A DNA stretch of 64,000 nt, from positions 96,001-160,000 of the IMG/VR virus record IMGVR_UViG_651703101_000001; one strand, written 5' to 3'. The notes below the pieces were generated by a model. It was not told the DNA's origin. It made no database searches and saw only the letters and a list, made by a program, of their open reading frames with translations. Below are positions 3,847-38,484 of this stretch, in pieces. The DNA is from a virus (taxonomy: Duplodnaviria; Caudoviricetes). The translations under genes and the position numbers were made by a program. Numbering within the stretch: the stretch's first letter is position 1; every line of letters begins with the position of its first letter.

Positions 3847-4704
3847 TTAGAGTAGAACCAAATCGTTAATGAATGATTTAAACATCAGACCATCTTCGGT
3901 TACACATATGACATGATTGGTTCCACATCTTTTTATACTACCAGATAGTCCAGTTGTAAGAGACTCAACATAATCTCCCTCTTCAAACAACTCCCCATTC
4001 AAATACATCTCACGAATATATTCGTGAGATGTATAATGCTCAACCTCCCACGATTCAGCAATACCCATAGAGGCACGAAGAAGATTATAAAGTTCCATTG
4101 CGTCTTGTTTGGTATAACCTTTTCCTTTCACTGCGATTGGAAGGCCCTTAATGAAGTCTTCAAAGTTACCTTCAGATGCATGTTTTCTCATCTTAGAAGC
4201 AGAAAGTGAAGAGATAGGATCGTCTGGGTCTTCTTCGGTTCTATCACCAGCCGAATGGGCATAGATGTTTTTGAAATCATAGAGATTTCCATTGTACTTT
4301 CTCAAGAGATTTTCCATCTCTTGTTGACGATCACCACCACCAACGAAGTGATAGTTTTTATATCCTTGTCTGTGTGCCTTTTTTGCTGTATCTAATACGG
4401 TCTTAATTTCTGGATCTGGATCCCACTTGTCTGCATACTTTGGGAACATTCTTTTGAGGTGATCCAACTTTGCTTCGTATGGAAGGGGATTCTTTTTTGG
4501 ATCCTGCGTACGAGAAGTATAAAGACCTAAATCACCAGGGGCTTTATCACCAATACTAGATGCAATCTTGTCTGCATGATCTAGAGTCTTAAGGTGACCT
4601 AAGTGACCTGGGTTATGCCTACCGAACACTCTTACAGCATCATCCGATATTCTTTTTGGTTGAATGATTTCTGCTTCTTTGAAGAATTGATTGAATAGTT
4701 TCAT
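3847..4704 (-). CDS. cytidyltransferase-like (HIGH-motif) protein
   Basis: FGRHNPGHLGH (HxGH), KNPL, GGDR and SASKMR (KMSKS-like) motifs. Confidence 0.75.
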   Translation of the reverse strand: MKLFNQFFKEAEIIQPKRISDDAVRVFGRHNPGHLGHLKTLDHADKIASSIGDKAPGDLGLYTSRTQDPKKNPLPYEAKLDHLKRMFPKYADKWDPDPEIKTVLDTAKKAHRQGYKNYHFVGGGDRQQEMENLLRKYNGNLYDFKNIYAHSAGDRTEEDPDDPISSLSASKMRKHASEGNFEDFIKGLPIAVKGKGYTKQDAMELYNLLRASMGIAESWEVEHYTSHEYIREMYLNGELFEEGDYVESLTTGLSGSIKRCGTNHVICVTEDGLMFKSFINDLVLL

Positions 4705-5507: not shown

Positions 5508-7973
5508 TTAGTCATCAATTGTCCATGGATCAAAAGATAAATCTAGATTCTTTTTAGGAACGACATTTCTAGGATATGAAATTGGTGGTCTTCCCTTTTC
5601 TTTACGAATGTGATTTGCATTTGCAATAACATTTGTGTCTGCAGATCGTTTATCGTATGCGGTGCTCATTCTCTGTTCAAGTTCACTCTGTTCTTTTGGA
5701 GTTAGACCATCGTAGATTTGAGAAATGTAATCGATAATTTCTTCATCTTTAAGATCATAATTATTTCTTAGTTCTTTAAGATCTTCGTCTGTTAAACGAA
5801 TTCCACCTCTACCGATCTTAGATTCAAAATCATCATTTGCATCCCAATCATCGGGGTCGATTCCCAGTCTTTGTTTAAGACTACTTTTGACCTTTTTAAT
5901 GTTTGTAGCTAAGATATCTTGTATTTCGACAGGAAGATCATCGAATTGAGCACCACCAGCCAATTGATAATCTTCACCCGTATATCCAGCAAGAGCTTCT
6001 TCTAAAGCACTCCATGGATCATCGTTGGCGAGTCCCAAATCTAGAATTGTAGGATTTCCATCGTCATCCATAAACACATTAGATCCATGCATATCATTGT
6101 GTGATATACCAGCCTGGTGGAGAGCTGCTCTTGCTCTCCAAATATTTGCTGCTCTTTCACTAGCAGTAGAAGGATCTAAGTCACGATATGCTCTACTCCA
6201 TGGTCTTCCTTTTGCTTTTGTCATTGCATAGGTTCCCTCGGCGGTGGGCCCTAAACCAAATGGATCAGTAGCATTTGGATAATTTTCTTCACCTGGAGCT
6301 CTTGCAAATCTAGTCTCTGCATTTGGGTTATTTCTTTCACTTGATTGGTGAGAGAATGGACTCTTGAATATGGCGTTAACTAGAGTAGGAAAATAAGGTG
6401 AATCTTTTAGTTTGTGTAAAACTTTGAGTTCTTTAGGTCCAATATGTCCATCTTTAATAACATGATCCCCAGTCTTTGATAGATACGCAGAACCGAAAGC
6501 TCCAGCCCCCAATTGATTTAGGCCCTTTAGGTCACTAATATCAAAGTCGGGATCAGCGAGAAGTTCACGCAATTCTGCGTTCATTTTTTCAACTCTTTCC
6601 TGATCTTTTTTCTTTTGAGGAATAGTGGGAAGTTCTTTGAGTTTATTCCTAAAATCACGCGCATCCCATACTGGACCATCACGGCCAACTTGTAAAGCTT
6701 GATTTTCGATAGAGGCCATTGCATTCTCTCTATCAGTTGTTCCCATCTTGTCAAGGGCAGCAGCTGCAGCCTTTTCTGTTCTTCCGCCAGTTTTATTTTT
6801 AAGATTATTTAATTGTGTATCTACACCAGTGTAACCCTTATCTACCTTAGGCTGCATGAGGGTTGCAAGATCTTTCATGATGCGATCATGATCATCTTCT
6901 TCGTCTGTAAATCCACCACCTAGGACTTTATTCATATCACCTAGCCCTTTTCTTGGTGGTGCACCAATTTCTCTACGATGATTACTGTCAGATCGATCTT
7001 GTTGAATATCTCTATTACGTTTTGCCTGCTTTCTTGCATCGGTAGTACCTACCCCACCTTCTCTATGCCATTCTGTAGCACCAGCATCTAATGGACCACT
7101 ATAATTTTTCGCGTGTTGTTCTCTTCTATTTCTAGCCAGTAGTTGTGCACCGTGAGTATTCAATCCAGAGTTGAGTTCCTTTGCACCTTGAGTTCTTTGG
7201 GATCTACGAACTTCGGTAATATACTCCAACGCCTCATCGACTAACTTATCGAAGGACATATTTTTAAAGTTAGAACCATCTGGTCCTGCAGCCCAGCTGA
7301 AATTGTTATTAGAACCGACGTAAGTATCAGGAGGAATTTCATCTTCCTCTGACTTCTCTTGATCGTTGATCATATTATTTCCATCAGGTCCACCATCCCA
7401 GCCCATTTCATTGGGCATGTTAGCATCTTCTGGTGGTCTTTCCTTTCCAGGTTCAGGTGCACCAAGAATATTACTTCCCGGTGGTGCAGCAACTTGTTGC
7501 TCTGAATCTTTCTGAGCTAGTGGATCTCCCATTGCAATTTCAGAGTCTTCATTATCGAGTTCTGCTTGTTTTTCCGCATTAATCGGAACTAGCTGATCAC
7601 CTTCTGTTTTGTATTCGGTCTTTCCTGTTTGTGGATTTTGCCAATAACCAAATCCACGATATTTCAAGCCCAATTCTTGGGCTTTCTTCTGAGCAGGAGT
7701 TAACTCTTTTTCAGATAAAATTGACTCAAGTTTAAGAGACTTGTTGATATCTTTAACCTGTTTCTTAACAGCAGATGCACCAAACTTAAGAAGATCTCTT
7801 GGATCTTTTACGTGAATAACTGGAGCTTTAGGATCATTAGCATTAAATTCTCCATATCCAGTTTTGGCTGTAGATAATGATTGTTTGAAAACTTTCTTCT
7901 TAAGTTTCTTAATAGATTTAGAATCTAAACGTTCTGACTTCTTTTCTGAAAGAAATTGATCAAATGATATCAT
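5508..7973 (-). CDS. large protein with C-terminal Ser/Thr kinase-like domain
   Basis: LGAGAFGSAY glycine loop, VIK, HNDMHGSNV catalytic loop, DLG. Confidence 0.8.
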   Translation of the reverse strand: MISFDQFLSEKKSERLDSKSIKKLKKKVFKQSLSTAKTGYGEFNANDPKAPVIHVKDPRDLLKFGASAVKKQVKDINKSLKLESILSEKELTPAQKKAQELGLKYRGFGYWQNPQTGKTEYKTEGDQLVPINAEKQAELDNEDSEIAMGDPLAQKDSEQQVAAPPGSNILGAPEPGKERPPEDANMPNEMGWDGGPDGNNMINDQEKSEEDEIPPDTYVGSNNNFSWAAGPDGSNFKNMSFDKLVDEALEYITEVRRSQRTQGAKELNSGLNTHGAQLLARNRREQHAKNYSGPLDAGATEWHREGGVGTTDARKQAKRNRDIQQDRSDSNHRREIGAPPRKGLGDMNKVLGGGFTDEEDDHDRIMKDLATLMQPKVDKGYTGVDTQLNNLKNKTGGRTEKAAAAALDKMGTTDRENAMASIENQALQVGRDGPVWDARDFRNKLKELPTIPQKKKDQERVEKMNAELRELLADPDFDISDLKGLNQLGAGAFGSAYLSKTGDHVIKDGHIGPKELKVLHKLKDSPYFPTLVNAIFKSPFSHQSSERNNPNAETRFARAPGEENYPNATDPFGLGPTAEGTYAMTKAKGRPWSRAYRDLDPSTASERAANIWRARAALHQAGISHNDMHGSNVFMDDDGNPTILDLGLANDDPWSALEEALAGYTGEDYQLAGGAQFDDLPVEIQDILATNIKKVKSSLKQRLGIDPDDWDANDDFESKIGRGGIRLTDEDLKELRNNYDLKDEEIIDYISQIYDGLTPKEQSELEQRMSTAYDKRSADTNVIANANHIRKEKGRPPISYPRNVVPKKNLDLSFDPWTIDD

Positions 7974-11191: not shown

Positions 11192-12568
11192 TCAGTCATA
11201 ATCGAAGTCTGTGAACTTGGATGAACCAAAGGTCTTGGTAGGAACTACATCATCAATGATGTCTTCCTGGGCTGACTGTTCAACATCATAGAGCCTCATC
11301 TTAGAATAGTCAACCCCCACAACAAATCTTTTCAGAGTTTGTTTGGTTGCAAAACGATTCTTAAGTTGTTTGACCATCAATTGACCTAGTTGTTCCAGTT
11401 GTTCATCTGTAGTCATAGAGAACATAAAGTCAGCAGTCGCTGGTAGACCGAAAGATTCTGAAGTATTTTCTAGGCCGGGGTCGGATGATGTGAATCCTGT
11501 TCTGTTTGTTTGTGTTGCTGACACAATAGGAACTTTATGCTTTACAGCAAGTCCACGAATTTCTTCAGCAATGCTTTTGACCATAGTATAGCTATTGACA
11601 TTGGCACCAGCACGGTAACGAACACTTGAACATATATTGAGATAATCAATAAAAATAATATCTGGCTTGAAGCTCTTCTTAATTGATAGTTCTTTAAGAA
11701 GTGATTCAAAGTGACCAACGTGAGCAGACGCTGTAGGATATTCTTTGATGAAAAGTTTTCCACAAGTTTTTTGTTTAATCAATTTAATCTTATTTACAAA
11801 GTTTGATTTTGGAACTCCACCAATGTCATCCAATGAGATGTTAATTAGATTGGCGTCAATTCTTTCTGCAATTTTTTCTTCTGCCATTTCCAATGTGATG
11901 TACAGAACGTTATAACCATTCTCTAACATCGATCCAGCAACAGAACACATAAACAAAGACTTACCAACGTTTGTACCAGCCATACAAACTGTTAATGTTT
12001 TCTTTGGAAGTCCACCTTTTGTAATTTTGTCAAAGTAAGTGAGTCCCATAGGGACTCTTTCTTCTGTTGTATGGTAGAACTCATAACGTTGCTCGTAGTC
12101 TTCAAGATAATCATGACCAACATGATCATCGAATCCCACAGATAATGCCTCAGAAAGAAGATCAGGAATCGATTCCGGTCCTTTATCTTTTACATTACCG
12201 TCATGAATTGAGATTGCTTCTAGAAGCGCCAGATAGACTGCTCGTTCTTTGCACCATCGTTCTGTTTCGTCAATAAGCCAGTCTGTGGAATACTCCACAG
12301 AGGACTTGGTAGTAATGGAGGAACATACATCACATATAGCAGAAAATTCTGGTTTTGAATATCCCTTGAGTTGCTCAACTTCAATAGCAAGGACCTCGGC
12401 TGTTGGTAGTTGATCATACTGGCTAAAGTGCTGCTTACAGATATCAAATACTTTGCGTCCTTCGGACGACGTAAAGTAAACGTCCTCAATATATGGTAAT
12501 ACTTTCCTGGTGTAAGTTTCATCATTTAATAGTCCTTTTAGGATGGTAATTTCAAGCTGGGATGTCAT
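11192..12568 (-). CDS. gp41: T4-like replicative helicase
   Basis: AGTNVGKS Walker A, ITLEM, IFIDYL, ATQTNR, SESFGLPATAD, KNR. Confidence 0.95.
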   Translation of the reverse strand: MTSQLEITILKGLLNDETYTRKVLPYIEDVYFTSSEGRKVFDICKQHFSQYDQLPTAEVLAIEVEQLKGYSKPEFSAICDVCSSITTKSSVEYSTDWLIDETERWCKERAVYLALLEAISIHDGNVKDKGPESIPDLLSEALSVGFDDHVGHDYLEDYEQRYEFYHTTEERVPMGLTYFDKITKGGLPKKTLTVCMAGTNVGKSLFMCSVAGSMLENGYNVLYITLEMAEEKIAERIDANLINISLDDIGGVPKSNFVNKIKLIKQKTCGKLFIKEYPTASAHVGHFESLLKELSIKKSFKPDIIFIDYLNICSSVRYRAGANVNSYTMVKSIAEEIRGLAVKHKVPIVSATQTNRTGFTSSDPGLENTSESFGLPATADFMFSMTTDEQLEQLGQLMVKQLKNRFATKQTLKRFVVGVDYSKMRLYDVEQSAQEDIIDDVVPTKTFGSSKFTDFDYD

Positions 12569-29945: not shown

Positions 29946-31211
29946 ATGAAAATTCCTACCACTGACGAACTTCGTCAAACTATTTCTGATGAGTTTGGTA
30001 CTGATGTAACTACCAGGCAAATTCGTCTTTGGGCTGAAGCCAATGATCACACTCCTTCTTCGATTCTGAATCGTCTGAAAGACTATAAATCTGGTCATGG
30101 TAAGTATGACCTCTCAGTGAAAGAGGTGTTGGAACATAGTTTTGATCGACCAGCTGTCAATCCGGTTGGTGAAGTCGCGACTATTGTTCGTGATTATGAT
30201 TCTCTGGTCCCTGAAGCCGATCCGATGTTTGTTCCTTTCGGGAACTACTCTGATCTGGTCAAGATCATTCGTTCCAAAATCTTTTATCCCATTTTCATCA
30301 CTGGTCTTTCCGGCAATGGTAAGACTCACTCCATCTATCAGGCGTGTAATAAACTCAAACGTGATCTGATTCATTGTAGTATCACAATCGAAACTGACCA
30401 AGATGATCTTCTTGGTGGTTTCCGTCTTGTGGATGGTGAAACTGCATGGCATGACGGTCCTGTGATCGAGGCAATGAAACGTGGCGCCGTTCTTCTTCTT
30501 GACGAACTTGACCTTGCATCTAACAAGATTCTCTGTCTGCAATCTGTTCTTGAGGGTCGTGGAGTTTATCTGAAAAAGATTAACAAATGGGTGAATCCAG
30601 CCCCAGGATTCAATGTTATCGCGACTGCGAATACTAAGGGTAAAGGATCCGATAGTGGTAGGTTCATTGGTACTAATATTCTCAACGAAGCGTTTCTGGA
30701 ACGTTTCCCTGTAACTTTCGAGCAAGAATATCCTGCTATAGCCGTCGAGAAAAAGATTCTCACTCGCAATTTTGAGGCACTTAACTATACAAAGGATACC
30801 ACTAAGCTCGTAGAGAATCTGGTCAACTGGGCCGATGTGATTCGTAAAACCTACAATGATGGGGGCGTGGATGATCTTATCTCCACTCGTCGTCTGGTTA
30901 ATATCGTCAGGGCCTATGTGATTTGGGAAAATCCTCTTAAGGCGATTCAGTTCTGTACCAATCGTTTTGATGAAGATACTTCTAAGGTGTTTCGTGATCT
31001 TTATGAGAAAATTTCAGGTGACATTGTTTCTGTTGAAGATGCATCAGAAAGTTCATCTGAACTTTCTGAGGAAGGATATCCAAAGAGCCCCAATTATGGC
31101 GACATTTGGGAGAAAGTAAATGCTGATGGAGATAAGCAACTCTATATCTACTCACCTGCCTCTCCAGAACATAACCGTCCTGCCGATAGTTGGGTTCCCA
31201 TTAACAAATAA
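29946..31211 (+). CDS. cobS: CobS-like MoxR AAA+ ATPase
   Basis: GLSGNGKT, LLLDELD, ATANTKGKG, NEAFLERF, ISTRRL. Confidence 0.9.
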   Translation: MKIPTTDELRQTISDEFGTDVTTRQIRLWAEANDHTPSSILNRLKDYKSGHGKYDLSVKEVLEHSFDRPAVNPVGEVATIVRDYDSLVPEADPMFVPFGNYSDLVKIIRSKIFYPIFITGLSGNGKTHSIYQACNKLKRDLIHCSITIETDQDDLLGGFRLVDGETAWHDGPVIEAMKRGAVLLLDELDLASNKILCLQSVLEGRGVYLKKINKWVNPAPGFNVIATANTKGKGSDSGRFIGTNILNEAFLERFPVTFEQEYPAIAVEKKILTRNFEALNYTKDTTKLVENLVNWADVIRKTYNDGGVDDLISTRRLVNIVRAYVIWENPLKAIQFCTNRFDEDTSKVFRDLYEKISGDIVSVEDASESSSELSEEGYPKSPNYGDIWEKVNADGDKQLYIYSPASPEHNRPADSWVPINK

Positions 31212-35787: not shown

Positions 35788-35865
35788 TTGGAAGGAAACT
35801 CGGTCTTAGAGACTTCTATTCAATGAAGCCACTCACTGGTAATCAATCCAGTTCCTTCCCTAATT

Positions 35866-35941
35866 GCTCCAGTAGACAAATTGGTAAAGTCGCCTCTCTT
35901 TCAAAGAGGACATTTTGCGAGTTCGAGGCTCGTCTGGAGTT
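35866..35941 (+). tRNA. tRNA-Glu(TTC)
   Basis: Cloverleaf, loop CTTTCAA. Confidence 0.85.
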
Positions 35942-35969
35942 CTTGTCCGAAATGACATTAAACTAATAT

Positions 35970-36040
35970 ATCGTGTTAGCTCAGTGGTAGAGCAGCTTTC
36001 GATAGGAAGCAGACCCAGGTTCGATTCCGGCCACGACCCA
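35970..36040 (+). ncRNA. aberrant tRNA-like RNA (no 7-nt anticodon loop)
   Basis: Intact D arm (TAGCTCAGTGGTAGAGC) and GGTTCGATTCC; anticodon arm folds as GCTTTC-GATA-GGAAGC; ends in CCA. Confidence 0.6.
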
Positions 36041-36115: not shown

Positions 36116-36568
36116 TTTGCTATAGAAAGTTCCTGTAACCCAACCTAACCTTAGCGGGGGGTTACCTTCGGGAGAATCCCCGCTGCCACAATTACTTTCC
36201 AGCAAACACTAAAAATAAGTCATAGGAAATTCCTTTGAATACCCAACTTTTGGTCGTGGGTTCGAGCCCCACCATCATAACTTCGGTTATGGTGTAGCTC
36301 AGTTGGTAGAGCGAAAGTCATTCTATTTCCCGACTAAAACTAAAATCTTGTCAAAAGAAGTTCCTGTTTTATACACTTTTAATGTAGCCACTATACTTCT
36401 CGACAACCCTTAAATAAGGCACATGAGGTTCCTTTCAAACCCTTTGTCTGAAACACAAACTCATTACCTCTCGCCTTAAAACCAAAAAGATAAAAGAAGT
36501 TCCTCTTTTCTGTAGGTTCGACTCCTACAGAGCTCATCGAGCTCTGACGGTTAATTTTACTTCTCATC
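36116..36568 (+). ncRNA. array of five Y-RNA-like stem-loop RNAs (36116-36206, 36218-36335, 36348-36406, 36416-36477, 36489-36568)
   Basis: Each unit: outer stem, AHA opposite a single C, 6-bp stem, invariant TCCT, variable insert; stems covary between units. Confidence 0.8.
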
Positions 36569-36579
36569 CCCAATTTATT

Positions 36580-38421
36580 ATGACTATCGATAAGAAATAC
36601 GCCTCACTCAGACTTTTCAACGCAGTTGTCGTTGGAGAGAGAACAAACACTTCGTTGGACTATATGTTCAACTCAGCACGTGGTATTGTCATTGCCCCTT
36701 CTGCAATGCACCGTGTTAATGATATTAAGAAATACGTTAATGACCGTCAGCTTTCGGGTGAAGAGCTCAACGCTACTTTCTATTCCAACTGGGAAAAGGT
36801 AAGAACTGTCTCCCTGGAACAAAGAATGCGTGATCAAATCACCCACTATTTTAGCACCTATGGTCTGGAGGCACTGGGTCTTGATTCTCCTGATTATATC
36901 TATCTGCCAAACCCTGGTGTGAAGGACATTCCAGATAACCTGCAAGTTCTTGTCATCAAAGGTGTCCGTAAGGAAGATCTCCAAGCAGCATGCTTTAAGA
37001 TGCTTGCAAGTGGTGTTGCTCTCAAGCAAGAAACCATTGAAGATATTCTTTATGTTCTAGAGTATGACTGTGGTTATAAGTTCAACGGTACCGAAGTCAT
37101 CAAGAACCGTGAAGCACAAGTGCTTGTCTATGACAAGACTGGTGTATTCCCACGGGATTCCGAATCCGTACTTCGTTACCTTGTCTACAAGGCCACCGGT
37201 GAAACTCTGGTCATCAAGAACAAGTATATGATTGACAAGATCCGTTGTTCTGGTTATGAACTGCCTATGCAACTGAACGTTCGTGAGCTTGCCAAAACCT
37301 TCAACCGTTACAAGCCACTATGGCTAGCATTCAAGAAGGCAAATCGTAAAAACGCCAATACCATCAACCGGATTGCGAAGTTGTCCAAGACACTTCACAC
37401 TCCAATGAAGGTTAATGTTCTTACAAATATCACCTCTCTTCTTCCTAGTGTCGAAGATGTCAAGAAGGCATGTGAGAATGCAAACGGTTTCCAAGTTGCC
37501 CGGGCACTGAATGTAGTTCGTCTGTATAAGGCCAACAACACTTCCCGTATGTATAGTGTACGGAATGGTAAACTGTTCGTGAAGGCCGCAGAGGGTAAGA
37601 CCTTCAATACCAACAAGTACGAAGTTCCTCTGATTAGTGCACTGCAAGGTAAGACTTCCGAGAAGACTTACTATATCCCTGATGAACTGGACTATGCACT
37701 ACCTGTGTCTGAAAAGATGTTCTCTGGTAATGTGCCAACCGGTTCCTCTATCCTGGCTCCAATCGGTGCCGAGCATCTGCTGGTGGGTATCTACTGGGAG
37801 GATGAGGGTTACGGTTCCCGTACTGACCTTGACCTCAGTGCAGTCAACTTGAAGCAAAAGATTGGCTGGAACTCTGCATGGAGAACTGGTGGCTCTGAAC
37901 TGATGTACTCTGGTGATGTTACTTCCGGTCACGGTGGTGCTGCAGAATACATGTACATGAATAATGGACTGAAGGATAGCTACATGCTGACCGTCAATCT
38001 TTATTCCGGTACCGTAGGTAAGCCATTCAAGGTGATTGTTGGTTATGGTTCACTCAAGAGTGGTGGCTATAACAGTAACAGTAATAGTAACTATGTCATC
38101 GATCCTAACAAAGTCATCTTCCAAGCTGACTGTGTAATGAGAAAGAGACAAATGATGATTGGTACCATCGAACCAGTCCCACAGATTGGTGCAGATCCTA
38201 CCGTCAAGTTCACTCTACTTGATCGGGCTGTACAAAACAGTCGGGTCACTCCTTCTGGTCAGAATACCGAAACCCTCGCACTTGATTATATGTTGAGTGC
38301 AAACGCCACCTCACTTCGTCTTCGTGACTTTGTGAAAACTGTGGATAGTCCTCTACTCGCTGATGTAGACCTGAGCATGCAATCCCTCACCAGGGATAGT
38401 GTACTCTCCATCTTTGAGTGA
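36580..38421 (+). CDS. 613-aa protein: helical (TROVE/ROT-like, inferred) region plus C-terminal TerD-like domain
   Basis: C-terminal GIYW...DLDLSAV...GWN...YSGDVTS...AAEY matches TerD-type acidic motifs; N-terminal QITHYFSTYG and basic helical segments. Confidence 0.6.
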   Translation: MTIDKKYASLRLFNAVVVGERTNTSLDYMFNSARGIVIAPSAMHRVNDIKKYVNDRQLSGEELNATFYSNWEKVRTVSLEQRMRDQITHYFSTYGLEALGLDSPDYIYLPNPGVKDIPDNLQVLVIKGVRKEDLQAACFKMLASGVALKQETIEDILYVLEYDCGYKFNGTEVIKNREAQVLVYDKTGVFPRDSESVLRYLVYKATGETLVIKNKYMIDKIRCSGYELPMQLNVRELAKTFNRYKPLWLAFKKANRKNANTINRIAKLSKTLHTPMKVNVLTNITSLLPSVEDVKKACENANGFQVARALNVVRLYKANNTSRMYSVRNGKLFVKAAEGKTFNTNKYEVPLISALQGKTSEKTYYIPDELDYALPVSEKMFSGNVPTGSSILAPIGAEHLLVGIYWEDEGYGSRTDLDLSAVNLKQKIGWNSAWRTGGSELMYSGDVTSGHGGAAEYMYMNNGLKDSYMLTVNLYSGTVGKPFKVIVGYGSLKSGGYNSNSNSNYVIDPNKVIFQADCVMRKRQMMIGTIEPVPQIGADPTVKFTLLDRAVQNSRVTPSGQNTETLALDYMLSANATSLRLRDFVKTVDSPLLADVDLSMQSLTRDSVLSIFE

Positions 38422-38424
38422 GTT

Positions 38425-38484
38425 GTCCATGGCAAAGGAAGTTCCTTTTATACAATTTGGATGTCTTTACTTCCCGCCATGGAC
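38425..38484 (+). ncRNA. sixth Y-RNA-like stem-loop RNA
   Basis: GTCCATGGC-AAA-GGAAGT-TCCT...T-ACTTCC-C-GCCATGGAC, 3 nt after the gene stop. Confidence 0.8.

Follow-up and report, generated by a model that had tools for sequence, protein, structure and literature searches.

An inside-out tRNA body on a bulged stem beside the gene for a TerD-domain protein in a phage tRNA cluster

A transfer RNA (tRNA) gene cluster in a 64,000-nucleotide (nt) stretch of phage DNA (positions 96,001 to 160,000 of virus record IMGVR_UViG_651703101_000001; the window hereafter) holds a small element, unit 2, in which the body of a tRNA is encoded inside out and mounted on a bulged stem. Unit 2 is one of six paralogous units, five of them upstream and one downstream of an open reading frame (ORF; 36580-38421) for a 613-amino-acid (aa) protein, P0001. 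In our judgement it is moderately probable that the units and P0001 make up an apparently undescribed particle of the Ro60/Y RNA kind, in which the units would accumulate as small RNAs, the protein would bind the bulged stem and the modules carried on that stem would give specificity. The system resembles the Ro60/Y RNA particle without being related to it.

The source record is a complete phage genome of 178.5 kilobases (kb), which sequence comparison identifies as a distant relative of Synechococcus phage S-CBWM1, and an ARAGORN scan finds 34 tRNA genes in the window. The locus is set within a same-strand tRNA cluster, where a 465-nt stretch free of ORFs separates a tRNA-Glu gene (end 36116) from the P0001 gene.

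The tRNA body of unit 2 and its sister units

All elements listed in the original prediction, which had been made from the letters alone, were found in place by direct reading of the + strand, and the limits of unit 2 coincide exactly with the ends of its basal stem (AGTC...GACT). Its parts are as follows (bp, base pairs).

36218..36335, + strand: unit 2, scaffold AGTC/ATA/GGAAAT/TCCTTT...T/ATTTCC/C/GACT (direct reading, script scan, Rfam YrlA)
36237-36240 with 36320-36323, + strand: connector helix GAAT/ATTC, 4 bp, joining the tRNA module to the scaffold
36246..36318, + strand: permuted tRNA-like core (Rfam YrlA, 35.9 bits; covariation over 16 modules; our model R1)
36246-36250, + strand: 3' strand of the anticodon stem, ACTTT, pairing with the 5' strand AAAGT at 36314-36318
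36251-36255, + strand: variable loop TGGTC (direct reading)
36256-36272, + strand: T arm GTGGG/TTCGAGC/CCCAC (direct reading)
36273-36294, + strand: acceptor hairpin CATCATAAC-TTCG-GTTATGGTG, 9 bp, with the UUCG loop at 36282-36285
36295-36296, + strand: U8-A9 (TA; direct reading)
36297-36312, + strand: D arm GCTC/AGTTGGTA/GAGC, followed by G 36313

The inner seven pairs of the hairpin, which directly precede U8-A9, keep the register of a tRNA acceptor stem. All nucleotides that make the tertiary contacts of tRNA can be read off directly: U8, A14, G15 with C48, G18G19, G53-C61, T54-T55-C56 and A58. The anticodon loop is absent; the ACTTT/AAAGT helix runs through the connector into the basal stem instead. 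With the arms and the connector read directly and 37 of the 37 pairs of the proposed fold standard, the description of unit 2 as a tRNA with a sealed acceptor end and an anticodon stem continuing into a scaffold is borne out. With an acceptor hairpin of 7+2 bp, cleavage by RNase P is conceivable.

The topology had been likened to that of the bacterial YrlA RNAs. The Rfam YrlA model (RF02553) aligns end to end with unit 2, over model positions 1-114 (E 4e-6 with 701 nt searched) and in the register described for YrlA, which upholds the topology, and unit 2 is the best YrlA match of the whole genome, the runner-up scoring 19.2 bits. The score itself did not follow: at 35.9 bits it stays below the Rfam gathering cut-off of 69 bits, and no match is obtained at that threshold. 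Our own model R1, built from an alignment of 16 permuted modules, gives the core 75.6 bits, a figure to be read with the core being one of its training rows. Neither ARAGORN nor the Rfam tRNA model calls unit 2, as expected from its permuted order.

Two other explanations were rejected. A canonical tRNA gene is excluded by the UUCG-sealed acceptor, the missing anticodon loop and the lack of an ARAGORN or Rfam tRNA call. Junctions between adjacent tRNA genes can mimic the pattern, scoring 23.8 bits with Rfam YrlA and up to 59 bits with R1, but the acceptor of such artefacts is open, while that of unit 2 is closed by a 4-nt loop.

The six units of the locus follow one plan: a closing helix of 3-9 bp, a 5' bulge (ATA, AAA or ACA(T)), a 5-6 bp helix ending in GT, and TCCT; then, after a variable insert, T-AC, the other strand of the helix, a bulged C (TC in unit 4) and the second strand of the closing helix. 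Their helices differ by compensatory changes (GAAAGT/ACTTTC, GGAAAT/ATTTCC, AGAAGT/ACTTCT, GAGGT/ACCTC, GGAAGT/ACTTCC). The remaining units and the gene are given below with their scores against R2, a covariance model built from short scaffold units.

36116..36206, + strand: unit 1, TTTGCT/ATA/GAAAGT/TCCT...ACTTTC/C/AGCAAA, with a 63-nt insert that holds a G+C-rich hairpin (script scans)
36348..36406, + strand: unit 3, short, 33-nt insert; R2 40.1 bits (training row)
36415..36478, + strand: unit 4, short, its helix GAGGT/ACCTC covarying with the other units; R2 38.1 bits, E 8.7e-10 (non-training)
36489..36568, + strand: unit 5, T arm CTGTAGG-TTCGACT-CCTACAG, a hairpin and GACGGTTAA; R2 19.4 bits, E 0.002 (non-training)
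36580..38421, + strand: ORF P0001, 613 aa, with an N-domain of ~390 aa and a C-domain of TerD fold; presumed partner of the units
38425..38484, + strand: unit 6, minimal, starting 4 nt after the stop codon, 9-bp closing stem; R2 51.7 bits (training row)

Minimum free energy (MFE) folding yields the scaffold in units 1, 3, 4 and 6 (both helices being reproduced in unit 1) and, in unit 5, helix 2; unit 6 has an MFE z-score of -5.59. The insert of unit 5, to judge by its sequence, is a reduced mimic of the tRNA elbow, and inserts of this type also occur in viral loci L051 and L052. On both strands of the entire genome, clean scaffold units are confined to these six. Rfam held no match to the scaffold at E<=10 in the window locus, nor at E<=1 in Phass-1 or in loci L111, L164, L063 and L042.

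Scaffold, insert and protein across phages and Flavobacteriia

We fetched 80 viral loci encoding homologues of P0001 and scanned them with a script that demanded TCCT preceded by a helix of 5 bp or more, together with a 3-4 nt A-rich bulge, a 3' bulge whose last base is C, and a closing helix of 3 bp or more. Units were found in 74 of the 80: the strand of the gene had 209, the other strand 4, and shuffled sequence gave 1; a locus has 0-7 units, most commonly 3, and most inserts are 20-60 nt long with no tRNA inside. The same scan gave units in all 80 flavobacterial loci (231 on the gene strand, 16 opposite), a set drawn mostly from Chryseobacterium with Aquimarina, Tenacibaculum, Soonwooa and Mesonia, and in 32 of 38 metagenome loci (67 and 6). 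Several of the viral loci that have no units are cut at the gene, and the six metagenome loci that have none include partial matches. The scaffold co-occurs exclusively with this protein family.

When 73 short units were aligned, 10 of 11 pairs changed on both sides, and the covariation score was 0.785, against 0.274 in shuffled alignments and at most 0.2 when the partners were slid. Little or no variation is seen at G13, T14, TCCT, T-A-C and the bulged C, and the 24 G-U cells are consistent with an RNA of + strand sense. R2 recovers units outside its training set, namely window units 4 and 5, a second S-CBWM1 unit and six units of Phass-1; in phiM12, a Sinorhizobium phage discussed below, it finds nothing. 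Many short units share the loop motif YTTGGAT (loci L016, L018, L023, L028, L034, L067 and L073; window 38453-38461), so that the units seem to fall into conserved types, which argues for a distinct function of each.

Two such units lie unannotated in a published phage genome. In S-CBWM1 (L001), one is found within a tRNA cluster (1449-1503; R2 49.3 bits) and another at 3918-3970, ending 13-14 nt before gp22, the homologue of P0001. In Phass-1 (L003), of the code 15 clade, six units (6190-6653) follow the homologous gene and run straight into the transfer-messenger RNA (tmRNA) gene at 6662-7100; in L025 a tmRNA (4235-4489) comes directly after the homologous gene. The wcaG RNA motif was seen below threshold near the module in two unrelated phages, L003 (6858-6943, 37 bits) and L042 (5777-5874, 30.4 bits; cut-off 42).

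The tRNA-like insert is kept in a subset of the other loci. The viral loci supplied 184 distinct inserts, in 22 of which the T arm comes ahead of the D arm. We aligned 16 permuted modules (window, phiM12 and 14 from 13 viral loci), selected on their T and D arms only. Pairing is seen in 93.3% of cells, and both partners vary in 18 of the 21 pairs; the covariation score is 0.722, against 0.180 for shuffled alignments (0 of 500 shuffles reach 0.722) and no more than 0.144 for slid partners. Two stems that played no part in the selection covary as well, the acceptor stem in 7 of 7 pairs and the anticodon stem in 5 of 5, and RNAalifold recovers the permuted cloverleaf unaided. A match to R1 of at least 54 bits inside a scaffold unit occurs in 17 of the 80 viral loci; 13 of these contributed to the training alignment, two (L067 and L068) add new cases, and the other two (L074 and L088) are duplicates of L073 and L087. 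Conservation of the T and D arms had been set as a test of the original prediction, and the arms are kept in the same module on the same scaffold in these loci.

Other inserts carry other parts of a tRNA. Three viral loci enclose an ordinary tRNA with an encoded CCA in the scaffold, for which the ARAGORN calls include tRNA-Ile(GAT) and tRNA-Ile(AAT):

L055, 2123-2240: tRNA in the scaffold, called with a 4-base anticodon (ctat) in an 8-nt loop
L057, 1392-1518 (same as L061): tRNA in the scaffold
L063, 1558-1709: tRNA in the scaffold

In several further viral loci the insert is a T arm alone. The scaffold is the constant part, and the tRNA-like body is one of several interchangeable modules.

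These comparisons bear on two other explanations of unit 2. It might be a permuted tRNA gene that matures to a working tRNA, or a functionless, decaying relic of tRNA-gene rearrangement, as its place in a dense tRNA cluster and the known permuted tRNA genes of algae would allow. A degenerate tRNA-like element (35970-36038, + strand) does lie 180 nt upstream of unit 2, between two tRNA-Glu genes; it scores 26 bits with the Rfam tRNA model (cut-off 29), its anticodon loop has 6 nt and its T stem is imperfect, and it is not called by ARAGORN. Unit 2, however, has no anticodon loop, its anticodon stem continuing into connector and scaffold; none of the 34 tRNAs in the window is close enough to be its parent (best combined local score 30 over 65 nt); and a relic would not keep a module that shows compensatory changes in 17 of 80 distant loci. 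We hold this explanation to be highly improbable. A DNA-level element, such as a folded single-strand recombination site or a replication signal, was also considered: tandem imperfect inverted repeats with conserved extrahelical bases have a form like that of folded recombination sites. Yet the inserts keep T and D loops and tRNA tertiary-contact nucleotides that are relevant only in RNA, G-U pairs are tolerated on the + strand, and no recombinase is a conserved neighbour, so that we give this idea scarcely any credence.

P0001 itself matches no family in Pfam, PHROGs, PADLOC, NCBIfam or PDB sequences, and the ESM Atlas returns unnamed viral clusters only, one of them auto-named 'TerD family' at 0.84. 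We found 360 relatives among the candidates scored, and a profile of the N-domain reaches 1342 representative clusters at 50% identity (1008 at E<=1e-30), the best 150 of which all share an architecture of ~580-700 aa; a form of the N-domain fused to a vWA domain was looked for among these 150 and discarded. The AlphaFold model is confident (pLDDT 86.7, pTM 0.85). In it, residues 392-571 adopt a TerD fold, superposing in VIA-align on 2qz7_B (Z 10.1, root-mean-square deviation 2.9, 140 residues) and 2kxt (Z 9.3), with Foldseek at probability 1.00 (3ibz, E 4.4e-6). The TerD motifs DLDLS and SGD.T..G.GA.E are kept; the Pfam TerD threshold (PF02342) is not reached by P0001, and 1 of 38 relatives matches, at E 0.028. 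The first 390 residues are mostly helical with a small sheet, and neither Foldseek nor VIA-align gave a match above noise, whether the whole model or just this domain was searched (best VIA-align Z 5.5 alone and 6.4 in the whole model, both over fewer than 70 residues; best Foldseek E 0.076). Foldseek rows for botulinum toxin were spurious, with TM below 0.12.

The original prediction had remarked that the neighbouring protein is not a recognisable classical Ro60, and this agrees with what we see. Pfam TROVE has no match in P0001 or in 38 of its relatives, nor anywhere in the phage genome, and Ro60 structures reach Z 4.2-4.7 over 55-67 residues, level with unrelated helical proteins (Foldseek E 0.58). 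By its predicted structure, P0001 is not recognisable as a Ro60, and its C-domain is not a vWA domain.

The neighbourhood of the module differs between phages and bacteria. Free-standing tRNA genes on the same strand lie within 2.5 kb in 24 of 60 viral loci examined, and a few viral loci have RNA ligase or an HAD_SAK_2 RNA-repair protein as a neighbour. The viral loci share no conserved protein-coding neighbour, and even the most frequent one is seen in 7 of 80, which marks the protein and its units as a travelling two-part module. In Flavobacteriia, RtcB adjoins the module on the same strand in 76 of 80 loci; it lies upstream of the module in 75 of them, and downstream of it in Aquimarina. 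In Chryseobacterium locus L111, which has three units upstream of the gene (2814-2983), a strong hairpin (AAACCTAACGGGTTT...AAACCCGTTAGGTTT; 2700-2760) stands between rtcB and the first unit, and rtcB and the module may therefore be separate transcription units. A canonical TROVE gene is present elsewhere in 2 of 5 flavobacterial genomes; because the two coexist, the new module is not simply a replacement of Ro60.

Two further features of the window cluster may be recorded. At its edge, 5 kb upstream, an ORF of 421 aa (29946-31211, + strand) encodes an AAA_5 (MoxR/dynein-type) ATPase domain (E 5.5e-16) with a weak CbbQ C-terminal match. Around tRNA-Glu(TTC), 106 nt of the window (35861-35966) are 99.1% identical to S-CBWM1 12314-12419, whereas homologous proteins of the two phages are ~40% identical, which suggests recent exchange or strong constraint.

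A possible particle in the tRNA economy

We propose that unit 2 is the gene of a small non-coding RNA, a tRNA body (elbow and acceptor arm) that would be presented on a bulged stem in place of an anticodon loop. The units would be transcribed together with the tRNA cluster and accumulate as small RNAs, and their common bulged stem would be the putative binding site of the adjacent TerD-domain protein. Such an arrangement would follow the logic of Ro60 and Y RNA, in which the protein grips the stem and a variable module does the work and gives specificity. The tRNA-like module might recruit proteins that recognise elbow and acceptor, such as RNase P and modification or repair enzymes; alternatively, unit 2 might serve as an uncleavable decoy for tRNA-directed nucleases. 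For a phage with 34 tRNA genes of its own, the benefit would be a tRNA pool that keeps working. The particle may thus serve tRNA or RNA quality control, beside RtcB in bacteria and in the tRNA economy of the phage here.

The unit nearest the gene stops about 12-14 nt short of the start codon in the window (unit 5, 36568, 12 nt before 36580), in S-CBWM1 (3969 against 3983) and in Flavobacteriia. This position suggests autoregulation, and the unit probably lets the protein limit its own translation.

In a broader form, which we put forward tentatively, the system would be an undescribed and widespread class of ribonucleoprotein, in which a protein of ~600 aa and tandem 'display-stem' RNAs converged on the Ro60/Y RNA design, RtcB included, and in phages protect or police tRNAs. 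As part of that reading, and held with equal reserve, the modules on display would be interchangeable, among them both full and inside-out tRNAs, T arms on their own, and short loops that are conserved. One example it would allow, again a possibility rather than an expectation, is an uncleavable tRNA decoy against anticodon nucleases of the host.

The main rival to a particle of units and P0001 is that the stems are cleavage or operator sites within a long transcript of the tRNA cluster, at which P0001 or a host RNase would release tRNA pieces or P0001 would repress its own mRNA. The recurrent placing of the last unit ~12 nt before the start codon speaks for it, as do the three loci whose stems enclose ordinary CCA-encoding tRNAs and the setting within a same-strand tRNA cluster, where promoter and terminator signals around and between the units are not above shuffled expectation. 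On the other hand, loci have up to seven units, some of them downstream of the gene (unit 6, Phass-1, L040, L071), most inserts of 20-60 nt hold no tRNA to release, and no nuclease fold or motif was recognised in P0001. Autoregulation through one unit, where this rival overlaps the reading we favour, is compatible with a particle and does not replace it. We judge cleavage or operator sites to be an unlikely explanation.

Several observations weigh against the particle that we favour. The position of the last unit at the start codon equally fits a purely cis-acting role. The MFE structure of unit 2 is another fold, at -33.7 kcal/mol against -28.1 kcal/mol for the cloverleaf, a gap of 5.6 kcal/mol; an MFE that differs from the true fold is common among tRNA-like RNAs. 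The units were chosen by a script based on pairing, so that their 100% pairing is true by selection; the real evidence for the scaffold is the strand control, the shuffle control and the covariation. Full tRNA-like modules occur in just 17 of 80 viral loci, and R1 finds no strong match in 80 flavobacterial and 20 metagenome loci (two weak ones, at 31-32 bits), so that tRNA mimicry is optional in the system. Binding of the RNAs by P0001 is putative, being read from the co-occurrence of the two, and structure searches match the N-domain to no known RNA-binding fold. The RtcB link amounts to about two independent lineages (the Chryseobacterium clade, and Aquimarina with another gene order), RtcB is absent from all 80 viral loci and from the window phage, and no RNA ligase or CCA-adding enzyme was found in the phage genome either. 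Finally, the stretch is covered by no sequencing runs other than four from wastewater, which carry the label RNA-Seq and which we judged to be 'probably DNA'.

Contigs from these wastewater runs, of low depth and 95-99% alike, span parts of the unit array; high read depth over the T and D arms comes from tRNAs of other organisms and is uninformative on expression. A first metagenome scan gave no close phage relatives for a unit-by-unit comparison, and a second gave only homologues of at most 36% identity, save for one fragment of 45 residues at 44%; proteins 71-81% identical to P0001 do exist, as a protein homologue search indicates.

To our knowledge, Y RNAs that mimic tRNA have until now been linked with one protein only, Ro60. 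The present locus has the same kind of inside-out tRNA on an unrelated stem and beside an unrelated protein, which suggests that the display of a tRNA body on a protein-held stem was reached twice in evolution and that the design does something important. The system is large, with its 1342 protein clusters in phages and in nearly every Chryseobacterium examined, and compact, with one gene and 1-7 small RNAs. As natural variants exist with and without the tRNA module, the role of tRNA-like Y RNAs becomes directly testable. The system is also a candidate player in the contest over tRNAs between phage tRNA arrays and the tRNA-cleaving defences of hosts, and its recognition would allow hundreds of structured RNAs and a large family of 'hypothetical' proteins to be named.

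Comparison with known systems

The closest parallel in design is YrlA with its protein Ro60 (Rsr). In YrlA, a V region, a T arm, a stem-loop at the acceptor position and a D arm are carried on a protein-binding stem, whose Ro60-binding module has the conserved motif GNCGAAN0-1G (Chen et al. 2014, PMC4201824). Likewise, unit 2 is a permuted tRNA-like domain mounted by its anticodon-stem side on a long stem, and both systems have several paralogous RNAs beside one protein gene, a link to RtcB in bacteria and a presence in phages. In the Salmonella rsr-yrlBA-rtcBA operon, rsr and yrlBA lie beside the RtcB gene, and its authors suggest for YrlA's tRNA-like domain a possible role as competitive inhibitor of an anticodon nuclease (Hughes et al. 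2020, PMC7790460). The Y-RNA analogy drawn in the original prediction is upheld as a likeness of design rather than as membership of the YrlA family, and the flavobacterial adjacency of RtcB adds support to it.

Unit 2 could still be a divergent true YrlA, bound by an orthologue of Ro60 that belongs to the host or is too diverged to be recognised. YrlA is the only Rfam family that matches, over its full length; phage YrlA RNAs have been reported (PMC4201824); and three Ro60 structures are among the weak helical matches to residues 278-362 of P0001 (Z 4.2-4.3). These Z-scores are tied with those of dozens of unrelated helical proteins, however, and the 35.9 bits of unit 2, about half the cut-off, come from the tRNA-like core. 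Four defining features of YrlA were looked for: the permuted tRNA-like domain is there, whereas a score at the Rfam cut-off, GNCGAA and a TROVE neighbour are lacking. GNCGAA is missing from the + strand of every unit (36116-36568 and 38425-38484), its only match nearby being on the minus strand, in the T loop of unit 5; the basal stem has an AWA bulge, GU/UCCU and a bulged C in its stead. The partner has neither a TROVE nor a vWA signature, its C-domain having the TerD fold, and the separate TROVE genes of two flavobacterial genomes indicate that both systems can coexist. With no TROVE/Ro60 gene, no Ro60-binding motif and a different basal stem, unit 2 falls outside the YrlA family, and this explanation, already disfavoured, seems very unlikely. 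The tRNA-like unit is also found in a minority of the loci here, unlike in the account of Chen et al. 2014, which has at least one per species.

A second likeness, in design, is to YrlB of Mycobacterium smegmatis and Salmonella, described by Chen et al. 2014 as a companion RNA with a T arm only. Unit 5, with its T arm, hairpin and GGUUAA, and units in L039, L051, L052 and L069 are YrlB-like in this respect, on a different scaffold and with a different protein partner.

The closest sequence relative of the unit 2 core is an unannotated element of the Sinorhizobium phages phiM12, phiM7, phiM19 and phiN3, which has the same permuted order and 80% identity to window 36245-36319:

L002, 4002-4070: YrlA-like element of phiM12, Rfam YrlA 35.2 bits

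Unlike unit 2, the phiM12 core sits on a perfect stem of 11-12 bp, with no scaffold found by R2. It is flanked by a hypothetical gene on one side and a gene for a macro-domain protein on the other, with a DUF2828/DUF7788/vWA protein encoded 1.3 kb downstream, and may be part of a separate Y-RNA-like system with a vWA protein; kinship of that protein with P0001 was considered and rejected (hhalign probability 0.3). A second, weaker match to R1 is found in phiM12 at L002 2753-2826 (39.3 bits).

Circularly permuted tRNA genes of red and green algae also encode the 3' half of a tRNA before the 5' half, as unit 2 does. The algal genes keep the anticodon loop and mature to working tRNAs through a circular intermediate, whereas in unit 2 a helix into the scaffold replaces that loop and the acceptor is sealed. 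Known TerD proteins (PF02342; 2qz7, 2kxt, 3ibz), on which the C-domain of P0001 superposes with its motifs kept, are stand-alone stress-response proteins of ~190 aa; the TerD domain of P0001, unlike these, follows a 390-aa N-domain and accompanies structured RNAs. In the literature searched, we met no account of this scaffold and none that pairs a TerD-domain protein with RtcB or with tRNA-like RNAs, an earlier mention in reviews or supplements being possible. Set beside these systems, unit 2 stands out as a tRNA mimic of the Y-RNA kind whose scaffold and protein are new, and the system as a whole is possibly a new class.

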